DNA from: an uncultured Planctomycetaceae bacterium
GTDB lineage: Bacteria > Planctomycetota > Planctomycetia > Isosphaerales > Isosphaeraceae
Direction of reading: 5' to 3'
Assembly (NCBI GenBank): GCA_963833985.1
Contig: CAWIAD010000002.1
Coordinates: forward strand, 2,624,001-2,688,000
Length of the DNA stretch: 64,000 nucleotides
The notes beneath the pieces are model-generated. The model made no database searches, had not been told where the DNA came from, and was given only the letters and a program-made list of their open reading frames with translations. The position numbers were made by a program, and so were the translations under genes. This document shows positions 1 to 11,657 of this stretch, piece by piece. Position 1 is the stretch's first letter. The number at the start of each line of letters is the position of its first letter.

Positions 1-386
1 TCGCTGGCCCGCCAGTCCCGGCGCTGGCGCGCATGGCACATGGCCACGTGCGTGAGCACGTTGTTTCCACGGGCGGAGCCTCCAACCTCGGGCGTGAGCC
101 CGACCCGTCGAGCACCCGGCATGCAATAGCACGCCTTGCAGTCCGTCCGAGGCGTTCACGGCATCACGACCGGCCGCATTCACGCACTTCCCTTTCCTTC
201 AATCCATGGCCTGCCCGCGGTATGGGATATCGGCCGTCAGGCCGTCAGGCCAGGCCCGCTCACCTGAAAAACCTTGGCGAGCGAGCGTCGGTCGGTGGTA
301 GGATGCTCCTTATCTCAACATCCCGAGCGGCCGGTCGATCGACCGGAAAGCCAGCCCGTTTCTCCTGCGGGAACGGATACTTTTTT

Positions 387-3170
387 ATGCGACACCTGTG
401 GCTTGCGGACTGGCGTGGCGCGTTTCATCAGTGGCTGCTCGGAGGCGCGGTGTTGGGCCTGCTTGCGGTCCGGCCAGCCAGCGCGGGCGAGGCAGCCGCG
501 CCGGACGATGCGTTTGTCAGCGACTACTGCGCGCGCTGCCACGATGATGTGAACCGGAAGGGCCGGCTCGACCTGACGAGCCTGGAGTTTAACCCGAGTG
601 ATGCGGCCAACCTGTCCGTCTGGATCAAGGTGCATGATCGAGTGAAGGCCGGCGAGATGCCGCCCAGGAGCCGCGCCCGGCCGGACGAGACACGGCGGAA
701 AGCCTTTGTCGCCGGCCTCGCACAGTCGATCATCGCCGCGGAGCGGATGGCCCTGGCCGGCGAGGGCCGGGCAATTCAGCGCCGGCTCAATCGCAATGAG
801 TATGAGAACGCCTTGCGCGACCTGCTCGGCATCCCGTGGGCGCAGATCGCCAGCCGGCTGCCGGAAGACGGCGAGGCCTATCACTTCAACAAGAGCGGAG
901 AGGCGCTCGACGTGTCTTACCTCCAGATCGCGCGGTTCATGGAGTCGGCCGATCACGCCATGCGGCTGGCGATGGGGATGCACATCGAGCGGCCGGCGAA
1001 ATCGACCCGCAAGCTGTACGCCCGCGACGAGCGGAGCTTGCGCAACTGGTGGCCGCGCGAGAACGGCACTCTGCCGGATCGGCTGTCTTTCCCCGTGCTC
1101 GATGCGCACGCCCAGCCGGACGTGCGGGCCGGCCGTGCGCCGGCGACCAGCGCGGCAACGCGTGAGCGGGAGGCGGTCGGCAGGGTGTCGAGCATCTTCA
1201 GCGACGCGGGTGGCTATAGCTGGAGCGGCTGGCGGGCGCCGGTGGCGGCGCGCTACAGGCTGCGCATCGCCGGCTACACGATCTGGGTCGCCGGCGGCGG
1301 AGTGGCGCGATGGTTCTTTGAAGGCCAGGGGGCCGAGAAGGCGCCGGTGTATCACACGCTCCTGTGGCACCGCCCGAACCTGGACGAGGTCTATCCCGGC
1401 CGGCGCAACGAACCGATCGGCGTGTACGCACAGGGTGGCAGCCAGACCCGCCCGATCGGGGCGGTCGATTTCACCCCGCAGCCGACGGTGAGCGAGCTGG
1501 AAGTCTTCCTGCTGGCGAACGAGGTTGTGCGGACCGACGGCTCCCGGCTCTTCCGGACGCGGGTCAACGGCACGGACGAGCAATATGTCAATCCCCTGGC
1601 GACCGAGGACGGCATGCCGGGCTACGCCATCCAGTGGATCGAGGTGGAAGGCCCGTTCGGCGACGACCCGGCCGGCGGGGCGGGCACAGGCTATGAACGG
1701 TTGTTTGACAAGTTACGGCTGGTGCCGTCCGAGCGGCGCGCGGGGGAGTCGCGCTGGAGATCGTTCCGAGCACGTCGGCAAGTCCGGGCCCAGCCACAGG
1801 AAGAGGCACTGGCGGAGGGCGGCGCGGGCCGCCGTCAGCCCGGCCCGGCGGCGTGCGCGAAGCGTTTTTTGAAGTCGAATCCGCGGCGCCGCGGCAAGAT
1901 GCGGAGCGGCTCTTGCGGTCGTTCCTGAAGCAGGCGTATCGCCGGCCGGTCGCCGAGGCCGACGTGCAGCGGTTCCTGCGGCTGTTCGATGACCAGTTCC
2001 AGCACGGCTCCGGCTTCACCCGGTCGCTGCTCTCAACCTACATGGCCGTGCTGTCGTCGCCGGGCTTCGTGTTCGTCGAAGCCAATCCGGGCAGGCTCGA
2101 CGGATACGCGCTGGCCACCCGGCTGGCCCTCTTCCTGTGGAACTCGACTCCCGACGACTCACTGCGGGCACTGGCCAGGTGCGGCGACCTGAGCAAGCCG
2201 GACGTGCTGCGCGCCGAGACGAAGCGCATGCTCGAGGATGACAAGGCGCGCCGCTTCGTCGAGGCGTTCACCGATTACTGGCTTGACCTGCGGAAGATCG
2301 ACGACACCTCGCCGTCGACCACGCTCTACAACGATTACGAGCTCGACGACACGCTGAAGCTGGCTGCGCTGGAGGAGACGCGGCTTTTCTTCGCCGAGCT
2401 GCTGCGAGCCGACTTACCGGCGCGGAACATCGTCGCCTCGGACTTCACGTTCCTGAACGAACGGCTGGCCGAACACTATGGCATCGGCGGGGTCTCCGGC
2501 GCCAGGTTCCGCAAGGTGAAGCTGCCGGCCGATAGTCTTCGTGGCGGAGTGATGACGCAGGCCAGCGTGCTGAAGGTGACTGCCAACGGGACAACGACCT
2601 CGCCGGTGCTGCGCGGCCACTGGATCACCGAGCGAATCCTGGGACTGGAGACGCCGCCCCCACCGCCGACGGTCAAGGCGGTCGAGCCGGATATCCGTGG
2701 CGCGGTGACGATCCGCCAGCAACTGGAGAAGCACCGGGCCGACCAGAGCTGTGCCTCGTGCCATAGCAAGATGGACCCGCCAGGCTTCGCGCTCGAAAGC
2801 TTTGACGTGATGGGCGGCTACCGCGAGCGCTACCGGGCTGTGTCCGAGCAGGTACCTCCGGTCCGGGGTTTCGGCATCAACGGGCAGGCCTTCGCATTCC
2901 ATTATGCCCTACCAGTTGATTCGGCCGGTGCGTTGCCCGACGGTCGGCCGTTCCAGGACGTGCGCGAGCTCAGGAGAATCCTGGTTCAAGATGAACGGCA
3001 GATCGCCAGGAACCTGGCACATCAATTGACGATTTTCGCGACCGGCGCCGGTGCGGTTCTCCGATCGCGAGCAGATCGACAGGATCCTCGACGCGGCGCA
3101 GGCCAGCCAGTACGGCGTGCGCAGCATCGTCCACGCGATCGTCCAGAGCGACCTGTTCCGGAACAAATAG
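387..3170 (+). CDS. Planctomycete DUF1592/DUF1588-type protein with N-terminal cytochrome c-like motif (frameshifted near 1750-1850 and near 3050)
   Basis: Signal peptide, CARCH heme motif, 'GEMPP', '[17 protein letters not shown]', '[15 protein letters not shown]', '[10 protein letters not shown]', '[16 protein letters not shown]'. The C-terminus '[14 protein letters not shown]' lies in a third frame. Confidence 0.85.
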
Positions 3171-3182
3171 GAAACTCCAGAG

Positions 3183-4503
3183 ATGCACGCGCAAACCGTG
3201 TCAAGATTCGCGGCTGCATTCGCGTCCAGGCGCCGGCCGATCTCACGGCGGCGCTTCCTGCGGGGCTCGGCCGTGGCGCTGGCACTGCCGTTCCTGGAAT
3301 CGATGAATACCCCATTCGCGCGCAGCCGCCGTCCCGGAGCCGCGCCGGATGTTCTGCATTTGCAACAACCTGGGCGTGCTGCCCCAGCCCTTCTTCCCCA
3401 GCGATGCAGGCCGCGAGTACACCTCCTCACCGTACCTGAAGTTTCTCGAAGAGCACCGCGCGGACTTCACCGTGCTGAGCGGCGTCTCGCACCCGTTCGT
3501 GGATGGCGGCCACCCATCGGACATCAGCTTCCTGACCGCTGCCCCGCACCCGGCCAGCAGCTCGTTCCGGAACTCGATCTCGCTGGACCAGCTCGTGGCC
3601 GAACGGATCGGAATGTTCACGCGGTTCCCATCACTGACTCTGGCAGTCAACGGCGGCCGGAGCCTGTCGTGGACGCGCACGGGCGTGGCGATCCCGCCGG
3701 AGGGCCAGGCGTCCGGGGTCTTCAAGCAGCTCTTCCTGCAAGGTACGCGCGCGGAGATCGAGCAGCAGATTCATGAAATCGACACGGGGCGGAGCATTCT
3801 CGACGTGGTTTCCGAACAGGCCAGGGAACTTCAGCAAAAAGTCGGCGTCCGCGACTGGACACGGCTTGACCAGTATTATTCCAGCGTGCGCGATCTGGAA
3901 CACCGGCTCCAGGAGTCGCGCGGTTGGGCCAACAGGCCGAAGCCGGCCGTCAAGGCCAGTCCGCCGACCGACCCGGCCAGCCCTGCGCAGTACATGGCCA
4001 AGGTGCAGATCATGTATGACCTGGCGCGCCTGGCGTTCGAGACCGATTCGACCCGCGCGATCACGCTCATGCTCAACAGCGTCGGTACGCCTGTCGTGCA
4101 GATCGCCGGGGCGACGATCACCGACAGCTATCACAACCTGTCGCACCACGGCATGTCGGAGGAGAAGCTGACGCAGCTCAAGGTGATCGACGAATGGCAC
4201 ATGAAGCTGCTGGCCCACCTGTTCCAGGGCTTGAAGTCCTCCAGGGAAGGAGGCGCAACACTGCTGGACCGGACGATGGTCCTGTACGGCTCAAACCTCG
4301 GCGACGCGAATGCGCACTCGACGACGAACCTGCCGACCCTGCTAGCGGGCGGCGGCTTCCGGCATGGCCAGCACCTGGCCTTCGACCGCAGCCGCAACTA
4401 CCCGCTGCCGAACCTGTTCGTGTCGATGCTCCAGCGGATGGGGATCGAGGAGTCGCGGTTCGGCCCCTCGATGGGAACGGTGCGCGGGCTGGAAATGACC
4501 TGA
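3183..4503 (+). CDS. DUF1552 family protein, usual partner of DUF1592 (frameshift near 3320-3349)
   Basis: Tat-like 'SRRRFLRG...LALPFLESM' in ORF 3183. 'SISLDQLVA', 'YHNLSHHG', '[19 protein letters not shown]' and '[14 protein letters not shown]' in ORF 3349. Confidence 0.88.
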
Positions 4504-4506
4504 GCC

Positions 4507-5054
4507 ATGACGCACGCCCGCACAATGGTCCTGGCGGTTGTCATCGTCCTTGGCGCGCTCGCCGGCGCCGCACCCGCCGATGGCCCGGTCAGAATCACCT
4601 TCGACAAGGTGGAAACCGGCAAGACGATGCCGAGCTACACCGACCAGGGCGTCGTCTTCGCCCTGTCGCGTCCGCCGAGTCGGAGTCGTGCCGCCGGTCG
4701 GGTGATGTTCTTCCCGCACCTGAAGACACCGCGGAAGGGCATCCTGAACGCGATGGCGAACGAGTCGATCCCGGTCGAAATCCGCTTTCCGAAGCCGGTG
4801 GCAGCCGTCACTCTCGTGCTCTGGGGTTCGATCGGCAGCGCCGCGGTCGTCGAGGCCTACGATGCGGACGGAAAAGTGGCGGACCGGGTGTCCAGAGACA
4901 CGGTCCCGGCACGGACCGGGCCAGAGCAGCCGATTCCCAGCGTCGAGCTGACGGTGAAAGCATCGGCCATTGTGTCCGTTCGCTTTTCGGCGCGCCCCCC
5001 GGCGGCTACCTGGTCTGCGACGAGCTGCGCTTCACCCTCTGCCCGACGCAGTGA
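4507..5054 (+). CDS. Secreted hypothetical protein (probable frameshift near 4990)
   Basis: Signal peptide and beta-rich sequence, 3 nt after the DUF1552 stop. A plausible C-terminus 'GGYLVCDELRF' lies in another frame ending at 5054. Confidence 0.6.
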
Positions 5055-5332
5055 AATGAGCGTGCCGGATGACCGCACAATGAGTCCGCTTACCGTTTTG
5101 GTTAGTTGGCATTCTCTACAGATCTTTGAACAATCTCTATCCTTATGAACCCGACGCGAGTCGTGTGCGCCCGTACAATACTTGGCCACGGCCTAGCGAT
5201 CCCCGAGCAGCCTGGACCGCGAGCAGCGCTCAGAACCTTTCATGCAACTCCGCGTTCCGTCTGTTCCGGACTGGATCGCTTGCATAGAATAAAACTTTGG
5301 TACCAAATGTCCTGAACGGGAGTCGCGCATGG

Positions 5333-5752
5333 ATGTCTGTTCACCTAGAGTTTGTGGTTCTGGGGCCCCCGATTTCCAACCAACAAAGCACCCCGCAAGG
5401 AAGGGCGAACCTGACCACATGGCGGGCTACCGTCGCAGGAGCAGCGCAGAATCTATGGGCCTCTCCCATACTCACAGGGATACTTAAGGCGATCATCATT
5501 AACTTTCACACTGGGAACAGACCATCAGTTGATGTTGATAATATGTCAAAACCGATTCTGGATGTGCTGGAGAACATCGTCTATGGCGATGACCGTCAAA
5601 TCCGGCAGGCCCAGATCACACATCTCAAAATAGGTGCACCTTTCTCGATTGTCGGCGTTTCCAAGATCATCGTCGATGCCATCCAGACGGGGCAACAATT
5701 TGTTTACGTCCGCATTGAAGACCCGGTTGATCCTTACCCGCTCCCGAGGTGA
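5333..5752 (+). CDS. RusA-family endodeoxyribonuclease-like protein
   Basis: 'DVDNMSKPILDVLENIVYGDDRQI' matches the RusA catalytic pattern D-x-D-N-x2-K-x3-D...DD-x-Q. Confidence 0.8.
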   Translation: MSVHLEFVVLGPPISNQQSTPQGRANLTTWRATVAGAAQNLWASPILTGILKAIIINFHTGNRPSVDVDNMSKPILDVLENIVYGDDRQIRQAQITHLKIGAPFSIVGVSKIIVDAIQTGQQFVYVRIEDPVDPYPLPR

Positions 5753-5755
5753 TTC

Positions 5756-6421
5756 ATGAATACCCAGGAACGATTGGAGCAAGTGGCGGAACGATACCGG
5801 GATCAGGGATACAGGGTTATTCTTAACCCAACTCCGAAGGACCTGCCGTCGTTCGCGAAGGATTTCAAGGTGGAAATCCTCGCCAGCCGCCCGGACGGAA
5901 ATGTGTTGGCATCCGCCAAAGCCAGCTCCTTGGAATTCGAGAGAGATAAGAATCTCTCGGTCTATGCGGAGATTATCGCGGGTCAGCCAGGATGGAGGTA
6001 CGATGTGTTCGTTCTCGGGCCACAGCCGCCCATGCCAGCCTCCGGCGACATTACCGACGCCTCGGATGATGAGATCGAGCGAACTTTAGCCTCTGCGGAT
6101 CATCTCCTCCAGGCCGGGTTCCAACCTCAAGCGGTTCTTGTGTCGTGGGCGGCATTGGAGTCAGCAATGCGCCATAGACTTCGGTCTCTCGGCGAAAAGG
6201 CGGAATGGGGAGCGTCGCCACGATCCATGATCAACGAATTGGTCTCGTCCGGGGTTCTGACGCATAGCGATTTCCGCGACATCGAAGAACTTTCCCGCTT
6301 GAGAAACATCATCGCTCATGGATTCTCGGTGCCGGAGATAAGGCCAGACACCGTTTCATTTCTTGCCCGCACTGCTCGAAGGTTGCTCGAGGAATCCAAG
6401 GAGCATGAGCCGGCCGCTTAG
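5756..6421 (+). CDS. REase(AHJR-like)-HEPN fusion protein
   Basis: N-terminus 'AERYRDQGYRVILNP..DLPSF' resembles REase_AHJR-like domains. C-terminus has the HEPN helix 'WAALESAMR' and the R-x4-H motif 'RNIIAH'. Starts 3 nt after the RusA-like stop. Confidence 0.7.
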   Translation: MNTQERLEQVAERYRDQGYRVILNPTPKDLPSFAKDFKVEILASRPDGNVLASAKASSLEFERDKNLSVYAEIIAGQPGWRYDVFVLGPQPPMPASGDITDASDDEIERTLASADHLLQAGFQPQAVLVSWAALESAMRHRLRSLGEKAEWGASPRSMINELVSSGVLTHSDFRDIEELSRLRNIIAHGFSVPEIRPDTVSFLARTARRLLEESKEHEPAA

Positions 6422-6522
6422 TAGCTGGGTAAAGCATTGCCTACGACGGAACCCATGGAAGTGGCGACGGTGCCAGCCATGACGCCCTACCCGATCCAAT
6501 TACGCCCCTTGACCGAAACAGG

Positions 6523-6672
6523 AAGGGGCCACCCACAGTTTGGCGCTGTGTCCACTGCGGAGGTGAATGTGGATTGCCACCACGGCGCCAACGAGGGAGG
6601 GAAACCTGGATGGCTCCATGATGTTCCTGAATGGGAATGTGGATGGTCCCATGGTCCCACCATGGTCCCACC
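6523..6672. repeat. Degenerate copy of the AAGGGGCCATCCACATT...GGGAATGTGGATG inverted-repeat element
   Basis: Left end AAGGGGCCACCCACAGTTT (6523-6541). Right ends GAATGTGGATTGCC (6565-6578) and GGGAATGTGGATGGTCCC (6633-6650). Followed by tandem ATGGTCCCACC x2 (6651-6672). Confidence 0.7.
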
Positions 6673-6726
6673 GGAGGAAACAACCTTTCCGTCATGGTCA
6701 TGAAGCGGATGCACTTCAAGTTACAA

Positions 6727-7512
6727 TTATGGTAGATCGCTCAATGTCAGCAGATGGGATCGAGCGACCGACGGGTTAAAGTCGTATTCACCTTTTCGGC
6801 GGATGAGCAGTTTAACGGCTTGCTCAATCCAGTGGGTCTCTTTCGAGTTCAACGGGGTCCTTGTGGCCGCGGTGTTGAACTTTCGAGCTTCCCCTTCACC
6901 ACCTCGCGTAGAAGTTAATTCACCGAGTTCGTCGAGAACCGGTCGGTCAATATTGTATCGACGAGCGGCCTCACCGCGGGCGCCGTAAATCAGTCCGGTG
7001 CTTCCCTCAAGAACTGTTAAACAGAAATACGCCATGGAGAGTAAAGGTTCTCCATGTTTCTTATATAATAGATACATCGACCACATTATATTTACGTCAT
7101 CAGATGCCTTGAAATCTGTTGGAGGTGGCGGGTAATCCCGACGGGTTACCTGAACCACAGCCATATCGAGAAAGCCAATCGAATCGAGTGCAGTTACCTG
7201 TATCGTTTGGTCTTCACCAGGGCCTGGCGGATCACGGTCAATAATCTCTGATCGCTCGAACTCAAAGCGGAACGACTGCTGGTCATCTGCTAGACCAGCG
7301 GCAATTTCCCAAGCCCGAAGCCATGCCTCAATTCGCACTTTTGCGCTTTCTTCAGTTGGGTGGTGCTCCTTCATTTCGACCGTTAGCTGACCTTGGTTCA
7401 GTTTGGCCTCGAACGGGATGGTCTCATAAGCCACAGGAGACGGGTTGTCATAGTCGACCCTGTCTCCCGGGTGCAGGAGGTAGAAGAGCCTTTCAACATG
7501 CGGGTCCCTCAT
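6727..7512 (-). CDS. Hypothetical 261-aa protein, possibly a divergent HEPN-like effector
   Basis: Intact lower-GC ORF with a GGAGGTG RBS. The family guess rests only on the helical C-terminal pattern ('AYFCLTVLE', 'GEARK'). Confidence 0.7.
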   Translation of the reverse strand: MRDPHVERLFYLLHPGDRVDYDNPSPVAYETIPFEAKLNQGQLTVEMKEHHPTEESAKVRIEAWLRAWEIAAGLADDQQSFRFEFERSEIIDRDPPGPGEDQTIQVTALDSIGFLDMAVVQVTRRDYPPPPTDFKASDDVNIMWSMYLLYKKHGEPLLSMAYFCLTVLEGSTGLIYGARGEAARRYNIDRPVLDELGELTSTRGGEGEARKFNTAATRTPLNSKETHWIEQAVKLLIRRKGEYDFNPSVARSHLLTLSDLP

Positions 7513-7570
7513 TTATCACCACCTCCAGGTTGCTTGTCCGGTCATGTCCTGAAGTGAAGGGAGGCAGCAT

Positions 7571-7716
7571 AAGGGGCCATCCACATTTCAGGGCGGCATC
7601 ATTTCTGCCCGCACAGGATTCAAGGTCGGAAGGTGGTCTGACGGTTCGGCTTGCTGTGCCGGGCCGGTTGATGCGGTGCGCGGGTCGGAGGGGAATGTGG
7701 ATGACCTCGGGATTCC
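7571..7716. repeat. MITE/REPIN-like inverted-repeat element, copy A
   Basis: Near-identical to 10058-10203. Terminal inverted repeats GGGCCATCCACATT / AATGTGGATGACCT. Confidence 0.92.
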
Positions 7717-7731
7717 TCCAGGCGGCGCCGA

Positions 7732-8259
7732 TTACGATCTGGCACCTCTTTCCAGGACCAGCAGGCGACGACGAGCTTCTTCAGGGCCGAGCATTGACGC
7801 GAGCATGAGGATGTCCCTCTGTTCCGGTGGGGGTAGAGCGTTTTTCTCCAGTTCATGCTCCTGGATGGTCAGTGACAGCCGGGCACCGACCGCAGCAGCG
7901 TATCGATACAGTGTGTCCAGAGTCGGGTTCGGGTTCTTACCATTTTCAAGTCGGCTCAGAGCCTCCGAGTTGAGGCCAGCGCGCCCGGCGGCCTGCCGAA
8001 GACTCAGACCCCTCTCTTCGCGGATCCGCTTCAACCGGCACACCAGTTCGGTGAGCTGGTCGAGTTGTGCCGGGACGCGGATATCGCCATCCTGAACATC
8101 GCCCCGCTCGATCTGTACGGCGAGCCCCGGATTGTCCCGGAACTCCTCCCGAATGGATTGCTCCTCGGCCTGAGCTTCCGGGGTCCGGCGTTTGGCCCGA
8201 AAATTTGCCAGCCTGGCGGCTTGTTCGGGGGTCATGTCAGACTCATTGATCTTTTTCAT
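7732..8259 (-). CDS. XRE-family HTH protein, putative antitoxin
   Basis: 'LKRIREERGLSLRQAAGRAGLNSEALSRLENGKNPNPTLDTL'. Overlaps the upstream toxin-like gene by 4 nt (ATGA). Confidence 0.85.
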   Translation of the reverse strand: MKKINESDMTPEQAARLANFRAKRRTPEAQAEEQSIREEFRDNPGLAVQIERGDVQDGDIRVPAQLDQLTELVCRLKRIREERGLSLRQAAGRAGLNSEALSRLENGKNPNPTLDTLYRYAAAVGARLSLTIQEHELEKNALPPPEQRDILMLASMLGPEEARRRLLVLERGARS

Positions 8260-8549
8260 GATCCTCGATCCTCGTCCGGGTAACAGGCCGTGACAGGGCG
8301 GATGATGAGGAAATCGCCGTCTTCCTCACGCACGTGAACGGCACCGATATAATGGCCGTCAGCGGTGTAGCCATAGGCAATCCATCGCGTCTCGCCAGAT
8401 GGATTCTTACGGCGGCTGACTTCGAGGCCGAAGCGGTTATGGATAACGTCCTCGAATTCTTCCCTGGTCACCCCAGAATCGAGCACGTGCCGGGTGTTCC
8501 CTCCTGGGTCAGCCTCGTCATCCCAATCAAAGATGATTGAAAAAGGCAA
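8256..8549 (-). CDS. BrnT-like (RelE-fold) toxin
   Basis: 97 aa. 'FDWDDE...NTRH...GVTREEFEDV...RWIAYGYT..G...IRPVTA' follows the BrnT pattern. Toxin-first order with the HTH gene. Confidence 0.7.
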   Translation of the reverse strand: MPFSIIFDWDDEADPGGNTRHVLDSGVTREEFEDVIHNRFGLEVSRRKNPSGETRWIAYGYTADGHYIGAVHVREEDGDFLIIRPVTACYPDEDRGS

Positions 8550-8627
8550 AAGGAAGGCCCACGAGCCACGGCTGAAGCCGAGCCATCCGGCCGTACAGCC
8601 GATTTAAAAGTTATGGAACCCGACTCA

Positions 8628-8655
8628 AATATAGCGGCCCTGGCTAAAAAGTCAA
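8628..8655 (-). promoter_or_regulatory. Sigma70-type promoter of the toxin-antitoxin pair
   Basis: Minus strand reads TTGACT-N16-TATATT, about 80 nt upstream of the toxin start. Confidence 0.6.
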
Positions 8656-8673
8656 ACCACGACGCCACGGCTT

Positions 8674-9937
8674 CAGGGCCAATCATAGTTAGGAGATGCC
8701 CAACTTGGTGAAGAGTTCGCCGACTCGGGCAGCGTTTCTCCTCATGGCCTCCGCGATATTGTTCGCTTGCCACGAGCGCAGCAAACCGATGGCCAGGTTT
8801 CGGAACGCTGCCATGACCTCTGGCCCAGAGTTCTTGCGGATGCGGCTGGCATCCTCTCCCAGGGTCACGTCGCGTACGTAGTGAGACTTGTTTTCGATCG
8901 TCCAATGGCCTCGTGACCATTGAAGAAGCCGCTCAGCGCCGGCGACTGCACGCGGCACGCTCGTGATGAAATAGCGAGTCTCCGTCGTGCACTTGCCGTC
9001 GCGTTTGACAACCGACTCGATCCGACCCACCTGGCTGACACCCGGCCAGTCGAGGTAAGTATTCAGCGCGGTCGTGGCCGTCAGCGTGCGGCGCTCATGG
9101 CGGCCGTGCCCTTTGTCGATCGTCGTCGCCGTGTCCATCGCCTCAAGCCAGAGCCGGCGCTGCCGAGGGGGAAAAAGACCCGTCAGCCTGCGGGGCCATC
9201 GCCGCTTGGATGTCGGCCAGGAGCGTCGGCTGATTGTCTTTGACAACCCAGAGATAATGGCCACCGCTGTCTATGATTTGTCGACTCAGGTCGCGCTGGC
9301 AGAACATGGCATCACCGGTGATCACGCGACCCTCCAGGACCAAGTCCAAGAGCAATTTGAGGGCGGCCTTATGCTCATTGGTCTTATCGACCCCGCCGCG
9401 CGGTACCTCGGCTTGGGCGACCGTCAGCCCTGACTCGTGCGCCACCAGCGAGAGTAGATGGACCGCCTTGCTCAGCCCATCGAAGCTGCCGCGTGCCGAC
9501 TTGCCATCAAGGGCAAAAGCTTCAGGGGAACCCGTCTCGGCCGCCGGTAGTCGGCCCAGCATGGCGTCGGCCCACCGAGTTAAGGCGGCCTCCAGCGCGG
9601 CTGGATCCAAGCTCATGAGCACCTTGCGGATCCCGCCGGACTTGGGAGGGCGCCGCGTGAAGCCAAGCCGGTGCATCAGCGCGATGTCATGGTCCTGGGC
9701 CCATTGGGCGATCGCCGCATAGCTGCGGGCTCCGCACATGATGGCGCAACAGGTCAACGCCAGGATCGCTCTAAGCGGATGCTGGCGGCCATGACGGCTG
9801 CGAGGGTCCGGAATCTCGCCGAGGAAATGAAGCAAGCCTAGGAGTGGGGACGCGTCCATGCCATGGCCCTCGTTGGTGTCATCCTGAGCAACGAAGACTT
9901 AACTATCTACTCCAGGCTAAATCTGTCAATAGCCCTG
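8674..9937 (-). mobile_element. ISAs1-family insertion sequence
   Basis: Ends CAGGGCCAAT.../...AATAGCCCTG. Perfect 10-bp target duplication GCCACGGCTT at 8664-8673 and 9938-9947. Confidence 0.93.
8689..9859 (-). CDS. ISAs1 transposase in two overlapping ORFs (9143-9859, 8689-9264)
   Basis: 'IPDPRSRHGRQHPL', 'ALDGKSARGS', 'ITGDAMFCQR', 'VKDNQPTL', 'GHGRHERR', 'RGHWTIENKSHYVRDVTLGED'. The frames overlap at TTTTTCCCCCT. Confidence 0.92.
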
Positions 9938-10057
9938 GCCACGGCTTCAGTGATGGGTGCGAAAGCAAATTATCCCGCTTGTTTTCAGGACTCCCTCGTC
10001 CGACACAGCAGCGAATTCGGCCATGGCCGGAGGGGGAAGGCGGAGGGGGGAAGGGGG

Positions 10058-10203
10058 AAGGGGCCATCCACATTTCAGGGCGGCATCATTTCTGCCCGCA
10101 CAGGATTCAAGGTCGGAAGGTGGTCTGACGGTTCGGCTTGCTGTGCCGGGCCGGTTGATGCGGTGCGCGGGTCGGAGGGGAATGTGGATGGCCCTGGGAT
10201 TCC
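10058..10203. repeat. MITE/REPIN-like inverted-repeat element, copy B
   Basis: Perfect 14-bp TIR GGGCCATCCACATT (10061) / AATGTGGATGGCCC (ends 10194). Followed by tandem GATTCCACTCCAC x2 (10198-10223). Confidence 0.92.
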
Positions 10204-10243
10204 ACTCCACGATTCCACTCCACTGGTCTTGAACTGCTGGATG

Positions 10244-10289: not shown

Positions 10290-11657
10290 TCAGGCCGGCT
10301 CGACGTTGGGGAGCTCGTAGCCTTTGCGGTACTCGCGGCCGAGCAGGACGTTCGCCTCGGTGTCGGGAGATCCCTTCTGGTCCAGGATCGTCTCGCTGGC
10401 GGCGTCCCAGTAGATCTTCCGGCCAAGCTTGTAGGAGATGTTGCCCAGGTGGCAGACGGCCGTCGAGGTATGGCCGGTCTCGACGTCGCTGATGCACCGC
10501 TCGCGCGACTTGACGCACTTCAGGAAGTCTTGCACGTGCGGCCAGTTCTGGTCCGAACTGCCGCTCTTGATGGCCGCGGTGCGCTGGCGCTCGGGGATGA
10601 CCTGGAAACCCGAGCGATCCAGGTGCAGCGTGGCGTCGGTGCCGTGGAACTGCATGCCGTGGCCGGGATCGCCGCCGATGCCGTGGTTATTCCCCTTGCG
10701 CATCTCGTAGACGTGCACGAACGGGCCGTGCGGGCCGTCGAACTCATAAGTGACCAGCAGGGTGTCGGGCGTGTCGCGGATGTCGTCGAGCGTGAACTTA
10801 CCGCCCGCGGCGTGGACGGACTTCGGCGCGGTCACGCCCATCGCCCAGTGGATGATGTCCTGAAGATGCACGTTCCAGTCGCCGATCATGCCGGCGGCGT
10901 AGTCGAAGAACCAGCGGAACGTGCCGTGGAACCGCACGCGGTTGAACGGGCGCACGGGGGCGGGGCCCAGCCAGCGGTCGTAGTCGACGCCCTCGGGGGC
11001 CGCGTCGGCATCCATGGGCTTGCCGCAGCCGTAGGGAGCCTCGTTGCTGAAGTTCCAGGTGCGGGTCAGGCTCACCCGGCCCAGCTTCCCGTCCTGAACG
11101 AGCTTCACGGCCTTCTGAAAGTGCTCGCCGGAGCGCTGCTGGGTGCCGATCTGGCTGACGCGCTTGTCGCGCCTGGCCGCGTTCACCATGGCCCGGCCCT
11201 CCCGGATGTTGTGGCAGATGGGCTTCTCGCAGTACACGTCCTTGCCGGCCATGCAGGCATAGACGAAGGGGATGGCATGCCAGTGATCGGGCGTGCCGAT
11301 GATCACCGCGTCCACATCCTTGCGATCGAGGATCGCGTGGAAGTCGCCGGTGGTCATGGGCTTCTTGCCGTACTTCTTCTCCACGCGCTCCGCCGTGCGG
11401 TTGAGGTGCCGTTCGTCGACGTCGCAGAGGGCCGCCACCGAGACTTCCGGCGCGCGCATGAAGACGCTCAGGTCATAGCTTCCCTGGCCCCCGCAGCCGA
11501 TGAGTGCCACGCGGAGGGTCTCGCTGGGCGCGGCACTTTCGCCGCGGGCCGTGCGGACTGCGGGATGCAGCGCCGACCAGGCGGCAACGCCGGCCGATGA
11601 CGCGGCCAGGCGGCCGGAACCCTCGATGAAGGTACGCCGATTCACGGTGTGGCTCAT
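10290..11657 (-). CDS. Gfo/Idh/MocA-family oxidoreductase, Tat-exported
   Basis: 'NRRTFI' Tat motif, 'IGCGGQG', 'TPDHWH', 'DVYCEKP', 'QIGTQQRS'. Confidence 0.93.
   Translation of the reverse strand: MSHTVNRRTFIEGSGRLAASSAGVAAWSALHPAVRTARGESAAPSETLRVALIGCGGQGSYDLSVFMRAPEVSVAALCDVDERHLNRTAERVEKKYGKKPMTTGDFHAILDRKDVDAVIIGTPDHWHAIPFVYACMAGKDVYCEKPICHNIREGRAMVNAARRDKRVSQIGTQQRSGEHFQKAVKLVQDGKLGRVSLTRTWNFSNEAPYGCGKPMDADAAPEGVDYDRWLGPAPVRPFNRVRFHGTFRWFFDYAAGMIGDWNVHLQDIIHWAMGVTAPKSVHAAGGKFTLDDIRDTPDTLLVTYEFDGPHGPFVHVYEMRKGNNHGIGGDPGHGMQFHGTDATLHLDRSGFQVIPERQRTAAIKSGSSDQNWPHVQDFLKCVKSRERCISDVETGHTSTAVCHLGNISYKLGRKIYWDAASETILDQKGSPDTEANVLLGREYRKGYELPNVEPA

Follow-up and report, generated by a model that had tools for sequence, protein, structure and literature searches.

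What separates the modules of an islet of toxin- and defense-like genes when the spacers between them carry no integron-type sites? The question is raised by a stretch of 64,000 nucleotides (nt; hereafter, the window) from an uncultured Planctomycetaceae bacterium of the family Isosphaeraceae (GenBank assembly GCA_963833985.1, contig CAWIAD010000002.1, positions 2,624,001 to 2,688,000), in which copies of an intergenic repeat lie between accessory genes. A first-pass annotation had taken the repeat for the boundary element of a gene cassette system. The reading favored here, with a probability of roughly 0.55, is that the repeat is a non-autonomous miniature, either a MITE (a miniature inverted-repeat transposable element) or a dimer of terminal inverted repeats (TIRs), of an element with a Y1 transposase of the HUH type, whose predicted single-strand cut-and-join activity piles up copies head to tail in variable islands and is likely responsible for part of the junctions that separate accessory genes.

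Repeat copies in the window

6521..6672, plus strand: R1, an internally deleted element (~6521-6585), a second right end (6633-6650), and a stutter, as delimited by alignment
7571..7716, plus strand: R2, a full family-A element consisting of a left end, an interior of ~100 nt, and a right end
10058..10203, plus strand: R3, like R2 a full family-A element; the two are 98% identical

R2 and R3 are each 146 nt long, and all three differences between them fall in the right arm. R3 has a 14-nt TIR without a mismatch; a purine-rich stutter precedes it on the left (~10030-10057), and a brief tandem one follows on the right (to ~10227). The near identity of these two copies is as originally described, but R1, then regarded as a degenerate version of the same repeat, instead aligns best as a deleted element (~65 nt) with a spare right end, and its nearest kin belong to other sub-lineages. 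With up to one mismatch allowed, the end motif is found 6 times in the whole window (1.31 expected). Five of these matches lie in the islet, which is indeed of lower GC content, as first noticed: its three modules have GC fractions of 0.55, 0.51, and 0.59 versus 0.67 in the flanks. The gap between R2 and R3 is ~1.07 kb once the insertion sequence (IS) of the ISAs1 family is taken out, which resembles the gaps in other arrays of the element (0.9-1.6 kb). An Rfam search with the repeat returned nothing meaningful, and the fold of the window copy (z of -3.9/-4.7) is mostly owed to the terminal repeat.

The element family and its probable partner transposase

A profile built from 13 seed copies yielded, above a score of 25, 24 genome-wide hits to this family (family A), 18 of them near full length (~134 nt) and almost without insertions or deletions; R1, added by hand, brings the set to 25 copies. 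Paired conservation is confined to the ends. The interior displays no codon periodicity (p of 0.84), no family-wide fold (mean z of -0.1/-0.5), and little covariation (-0.32), and these tests rule out a coding origin or a conserved hairpin for it. Family B (15 hits) has the same end motif and a different interior, and the motif also occurs dispersed as singles, dimers, and clusters. Neighboring copies are more alike than distant ones (79% versus 67%, p of 2e-4). Near-identical pairs bracket cargo, as R2 and R3 do in the window (97% in the family-wide comparison) and as does a 99% identical pair at C2:1450/1460 kb, and the third members of triplets often come from other lineages. Units consisting of an element plus its flank have been duplicated inside the genome. 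Features that define MITEs are present, namely, a size of 70 to 300 bp, TIRs, non-coding sequence, multiple copies, and a transposase with shared ends. No target-site duplication, a trait of DDE-type MITEs, was seen by eye in the flanks of 19 copies, the borders of which are blurred by stutters. Beyond this genome, the paired-end pattern was found in 1 of 120 genomes of the family, a pattern scan of metagenomes gave two chance-like hits, and among sequencing runs, two from soil contain 6 to 7% of the words of the stretch, too sparse for joints, and no RNA run was listed as containing it.

Two genes of the same genome (G000) are framed by inward-facing copies of the end motif:

C2:551448-552815: intact transposase gene, 455 amino acids (aa), open, ~2 Mb from the window
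C2:2519136: second framed transposase gene, frameshifted, 110 kb from the window

The left end of the transposase gene matches the left end of the element and its right end matches the right end, each separately. The 455-aa protein contains the motifs NHLH (residue 71), FWE (194), and YVDLNP (216), with 123 residues between the HUH and WE motifs, and matches the NCBIfam model REP_Tyr_transpos and a Pfam model with E values of 4e-10 and 0.0065, respectively, both below the cut-off. A domain scan detected Y1_Tnp only and none of the C-terminal helix-turn-helix (HTH) domains (Bac_DnaA_C, HTH_23, HTH_28) of subclass 2.1. By its motifs alone (NHLH rather than NHYH), the enzyme fits the TnpA-Y1 subclass 2.3 type.

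The association of the motif with this gene extends to other genomes. Among seven distinct loci encoding close homologues (47-69% identity; locus L028 was left out of this tally), six have at least one inward-facing motif and four have both, none has a motif in the wrong orientation, and one is truncated and has no motif; more distant homologues mostly have a related motif. Genomes of the genus with the transposase gene contain 60, 33, 20, 121, 41, 55, and 5 motifs, whereas those without it contain 7, 4, 8, 4, 19, 6, and 49, an excess with a p of 0.02 among genomes that are kin rather than independent; G010 and G005 run counter to the trend. Because the end motif frames the Y1/HUH gene and its orthologues, the element is likely a MITE of an element similar to TIRtrons/TIRYTs, and we infer that the enzyme encoded at C2:551448-552815 moves it. 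The earlier statement that no cognate transposase is present accordingly holds inside the window and fails genome-wide. Mobilization in trans by an HUH enzyme, one of two suggestions made at that time, is supported by the presence of this gene, with the same ends, elsewhere in the genome; as for the other, a tyrosine recombinase, none is encoded within 80 kb of family-A copies (the nearest is at 83 kb).

Transposase homologues in G004 (L135:14066-16147 and L136:7548-11334) are accompanied by end-motif copies repeated in tandem, from ten to several tens per run, with purine-rich spacers that vary, and a milder stutter is seen beside nearly all ends in G000. Such runs suggest iterative end addition; an assembly error could also produce them. 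The genome encodes a second subclass-2.3-type transposase, T1, in ~15 long copies that are 83-96% alike and have asymmetric ends. The T1 right end occurs as a repeat in its own right (more than 100 motif hits), and several T1 copies are broken by accessory genes.

Head-to-tail arrays around accessory genes

Nine pairs of neighbors among the 25 copies lie less than 3 kb apart (0.18 expected) and span 0.9 to 2.3 kb. All nine are co-oriented and make up four triplets plus a lone pair with an IS between its members; with ISs set aside, the array spacing is 0.9-1.6 kb. Genes beside the elements are oriented at random (8/7/5/5). A strict replichore bias as the source of co-orientation is not supported, in a comparison limited by weak skew. 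Toxin-antitoxin pairs occupy four of the eight gene-bearing intervals (Phd-PIN, TacA1-GNAT, a small gene with PemK, and BrnT-HTH); the ninth interval, an IS only, was excluded from this count. The motif is found within 1.5 kb of 5 of the 36 independently found PIN/PemK/Phd loci, compared to 2.2% of small genes (p of 1e-3). It is not near the remaining 31 loci, 26 of the 36 are near no Y1-type repeat tested, and a de novo search for 10-mers enriched around toxin-antitoxin loci found no dominant motif. The repeat is not scattered at random and is enriched near toxin-antitoxin genes, which is what the first-pass annotation had anticipated. ISAs1 and several other ISs also gather in these islands.

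In a family-B array at C2:489-511 kb (loci L004 and L016), about nine copies or half copies share one orientation, and the cargo includes toxin-antitoxin pairs of the PemK and PIN types as well as Uma2, LRR, and ankyrin genes; another ISAs1 copy sits in the end of a family-B element at C2:488 kb. A toxin-antitoxin-like pair bounded by direct repeats of 20-odd nt, belonging to another end family, lies inside a T1 gene.

Empty sites, borders, and breaks in relatives

Three of the arrays are insertions relative to related genomes: that in the window, that at C1:457-463 kb (empty in three relatives), and that at C2:91-101 kb (empty in four). The variable region of the window is ~13 kb long and runs left past the window start; from the Gfo/Idh/MocA gene to the next conserved gene, the distance is ~13 kb here versus 0.4-0.7 kb in G006 and G007. 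The inserts overrun the outer elements, extending over 13 kb here and over 6.6 and 9.7 kb at the two other arrays.

At 62 loci that encode homologues of the window's three cargo modules, the motif is not found above chance (0 of 5 loci; 6 hits versus 6.3 expected at 29 loci; 4 versus 5.3 at 28 loci), in a comparison limited by the distance of these homologues (29-61% identity) and, like that of toxin-antitoxin loci with Y1-type repeats above and that of T1 breaks below, made with repeat patterns chosen after viewing the loci. Close homologues (82-86%) of the toxin-antitoxin modules of other arrays are found beside other Y1-type repeats or beside none. For G000 toxin-antitoxin modules, as judged by eye, some Y1-type repeat is found within ~300 bp of four of six close homologues and within ~500 bp of a fifth; a GTAG pattern did not rise above the level of its reversed control (179 versus 162). 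Because the repeat beside close homologues, where there is one, is mostly of a different family, the site does not appear to travel with the gene. Module boundaries in relatives had been expected to coincide with the repeat, an expectation partly contradicted by the island borders, which miss the outer repeats, and by the cargo homologues, which lack the motif. These comparisons do not demonstrate a cassette system whose modules travel together with their sites.

Homology between G011 and its close relatives ends 8 to 22 bp from a TIR or end dimer at three of three sites tested, one of them inside a gene; these sites were picked by eye, 3 from 15 loci out of 121 motif hits. Of 36 internal breaks in T1 fragments, 12 have an end motif within 80 bp, compared to 8.5% in a local control.

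Several further loci in relatives are of note. A two-gene block at L147 (G002 C36) is 88-93% identical to G000 C2:95305-98425, and the block ends ~55 bp from a family-A element in one genome and ~30 bp from a B-like element in the other, at opposite ends. At the site in G011 that is orthologous to the window's (L030:5780-6190), a long heptamer tandem repeat lies beside a two-gene toxin/antitoxin-like pair. At loci L160 to L175 (G011 and G003), 43-bp end-motif dimers recur where conserved genes meet accessory ones, the latter being, by eye, toxin-antitoxin-like, nuclease-like, and reverse-transcriptase-like.

Possible mechanism and competing explanations

Enzymes of the RAYT/TnpA-REP type (REP stands for repetitive extragenic palindrome) cleave and strand-transfer single-stranded repeats in vitro, according to the available text of PMC8266576; for TIRYT or subclass 2.3 enzymes, no activity data were found in the literature. 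By analogy with such activity, the enzyme would nick single-stranded DNA at the end motif and join the nick to other DNA. Two-ended events would move the miniature, whereas one-ended or slipped joining would duplicate it locally (as in R2/R3), drag flanking DNA along, and add tandem stutters. In dispensable hot spots, such events could leave co-oriented copies between accessory modules, and the first module would need no repeat on its left. On this reading, the transposase ends flag the joints of variable islands and likely contribute to their formation.

Several observations weigh against this reading. No examined transposase end matches the interior of the element, and none of 40 relatives yielded a hit to its DNA, so its parent is not seen. 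G010 contains 49 motifs and gives no transposase hit (its assembly is 75% complete). The G011 breakpoints come from a selection made by eye, and among the 36 breaks in T1 fragments, only two lie within 80 bp of the family-A end motif itself. At one of the G011 sites, two relatives hold other inserts without the end motif, and at the window's own site, G011 has a different gene pair without the repeat; hot spots thus exist without the element. The regular spacing of 0.9-1.6 kb suits a cassette model equally well or better.

In such a model, dedicated HUH-driven cassettes, each a module with one element, would be excised as circles and inserted at a resident element, building integron-style arrays. 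The nine close co-oriented pairs, four triplets, and even spacing favor it, and toxin-antitoxin pairs in half of the gene-bearing intervals, the greater likeness of near copies, the second array on family B, and the orientation that is not strictly bound to the replichore (weak skew) all agree with it. So do the pair bounded by direct repeats that interrupts a T1 gene and the four of six close toxin-antitoxin homologues found within ~300 bp of a Y1-type repeat. Nevertheless, this model is unlikely: cassettes carrying their own site should show the motif at the 62 cargo-homologue loci, should end at the outer elements rather than overrun them, and should not adjoin mostly other repeat families in close homologues, and neither the random orientation of the cargo nor the mixed lineages of third triplet members fits well. 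Only slightly less probable is passive accumulation, whereby the MITE and accessory genes reach dispensable hot spots independently, clustering reflects local hopping or duplication, and the element has no role in moving genes. The 31 of 36 toxin-antitoxin loci away from the motif (26 away from all tested Y1-type repeats), the acceptance of element-free inserts by hot spots, and the ISAs1 and other ISs piled into the same islands point that way; full co-orientation with gene-sized spacing, near-identical pairs that bracket cargo, and in-gene breaks that coincide with end motifs do not.

A remnant of an integron (a CALIN, that is, a cluster of attC sites lacking an integrase), a dif module, or a recombinase att array is highly improbable, even though a direct-repeat array with toxin-antitoxin cargo is reminiscent of them. 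The ends match a Y1 transposase instead, and the nearest tyrosine recombinase is 83 kb from any copy. The absence of an integrase reported in the first-pass annotation is borne out (best score of 99 bits against a cut-off of 265 for the integron integrase), as is that of attC: a pattern scan found two loose attC-like patterns, both inside the 261-aa gene described below, and none in the spacers. The best match to the dif consensus is 17 of 28. An integron or dif remnant is largely refuted. The transposon-miniature reading could also be carried further, and in this form it is tentative at best: subclass-2.3 Y1 enzymes and miniature ends might constitute a recombinase-free, integron-like gene-stacking system acting on single-stranded DNA, in which resident end dimers serve as landing pads and undergo duplication when toxin-antitoxin or defense modules join, giving regular co-oriented triplets. 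The pad family might then differ between hosts, since the site would stay chromosomal.

Cargo genes and other features of the window

1..105, minus strand: right-end repeat of the second Y1 transposase family (T1), within the same 13-kb variable region
5333..5752, plus strand: RusA-like gene of 139 aa that opens a conserved module of two genes (Pfam PF05866, E of 3.4e-7)
5756..6421, plus strand: gene with a REase_AHJR-like domain (E of 1e-14) and a weak HEPN match (E of 0.004), 221 aa
6727..7512, minus strand: 261-aa protein between R1 and R2, widespread unnamed family with a DUF8168-like lead
7732..8259, minus strand: HTH antitoxin-like gene, 175 aa, stop codon 16 bp from R2
8256..8549, minus strand: BrnT-like toxin gene, 97 aa (PF04365, E of 3.7e-6, under the curated cut-off)
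8628..8655, minus strand: sigma-70-like promoter match upstream of brnT (10/12, consensus match only)
8674..9937, minus strand: ISAs1-family element with two open reading frames (ORFs), an independent insertion with a 10-bp target duplication (8664-8673, 9938-9947)
10290..11657, minus strand: Gfo/Idh/MocA gene, which is conserved and flanks the island on the right

Genes were called with a simple purpose-made caller, and the identities first given to the RusA-like, REase-HEPN, BrnT-like, and HTH genes hold in domain searches. The RusA-like partner adjoins the REase_AHJR/HEPN gene at 25 of 29 loci with REase homologues, which are patchily distributed (28 of 120 genomes of the family). These two genes are a candidate toxin-antitoxin or defense pair; a literature search, with incomplete coverage of subscription journals, found no description of it. 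PADLOC matched the cargo to generic HTH models only, naming no system, and had no match to the RusA-like/REase-HEPN genes. The HTH and BrnT-like genes were both found, using tblastn, at 26 of 28 homologue loci, with one partner seen at the other two. The 261-aa gene, initially considered an orphan, has 452 homologues and resembles DUF8168-type clusters; its structural model is confident (pLDDT of 91), and Foldseek found no match to it at an E value of 0.001.

The promoter scan gave three matches versus 2.0 expected in shuffled sequences. Inverted half-palindromes at 8564-8580 and 8664-8676 flank the brnT promoter, and ISAs1 is inserted into one of them. This IS, present in four copies in the genome, is separate from the repeat, as originally stated, having its own ends and its own target duplication. 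The DUF1592/DUF1552-type operon to the left of the islet (33-5148) is interrupted at several places by overlapping ORFs, resembling frameshifts; it falls in the 13-kb region that relatives lack at this site.

Comparison with known systems

The closest described elements are TIRtrons/TIRYTs, in which a Y1 HUH gene is framed by inward-facing terminal repeats that are also dispersed as singles, dimers, and clusters (PMC3733652, as far as its available text goes). The framed gene with its catalytic tyrosine, the dispersed ends, and an end motif close to GGGGWSAS are shared, although the fifth base of the motif is C here, off this consensus, which according to the same text is common to only some TIRs. 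Unlike those elements, the dimers described here have a conserved interior of 100 nt, and the partner enzyme is of the subclass 2.3 type; in the accessible part of PMC6006769, the 26 TIRYTs published so far belong to subclasses 2.1, 2.2, and 2.5. That text describes subclass 2.3 as having no identifiable REP-like structures around its genes. The NHxH, WE, and YVDLNP motifs, long insertions, long tail, and several divergent copies per genome are all as described there for this subclass; the terminal repeats and miniatures are not. On the strength of these partial texts, terminal repeats and miniatures on a 2.3-type enzyme would represent a variant. The available text of PMC3733652 says nothing of arrays with accessory cargo or of toxins.

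REPIN/RAYT systems (REPtrons) similarly combine non-autonomous repeat doublets with a Y1 enzyme acting in trans, but the element described here has neither a GTAG foot nor a conserved interior hairpin, and its ~25 copies are found in islands. The TnpA-REP genes beside prochlorosin genes (10.1101/2020.03.09.984088) offer another parallel, with a Y1 enzyme and its fragments located among variable small genes; in the accessible text, that enzyme is of subclass 2.1 and is associated with a single cargo family, and the diversifying role proposed for it was qualified by a later note of the authors that there is no strong evidence for or against causation. Integrons and CALINs share the co-oriented sites one gene apart and the richness in toxin-antitoxin genes. 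They differ from the arrays described here, which have no IntI and no attC, accept cargo in either orientation with its own promoters, and have a site that homologous cargo does not carry. No paper describing a cassette role for such ends was found in a search that covered subscription journals thinly.

The TIRtron/TIRYT kind of element is thus already known, and what appears to be new is that such ends accompany a subclass for which flanking repeats were described as lacking, and that they are arranged in regular triplets. Head-to-tail copies one gene apart, often around toxin-antitoxin pairs, hint at a role in gene stacking, and this genome offers a matched set for its study: an intact enzyme together with both of its ends (left and right), miniatures of two families, and four regular arrays. 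Should these ends recruit genes, they would provide a route to defense and toxin-antitoxin islands that is invisible to integron finders; if they do not, terminal repeats and miniatures will still have been assigned to a subclass described as being without them.

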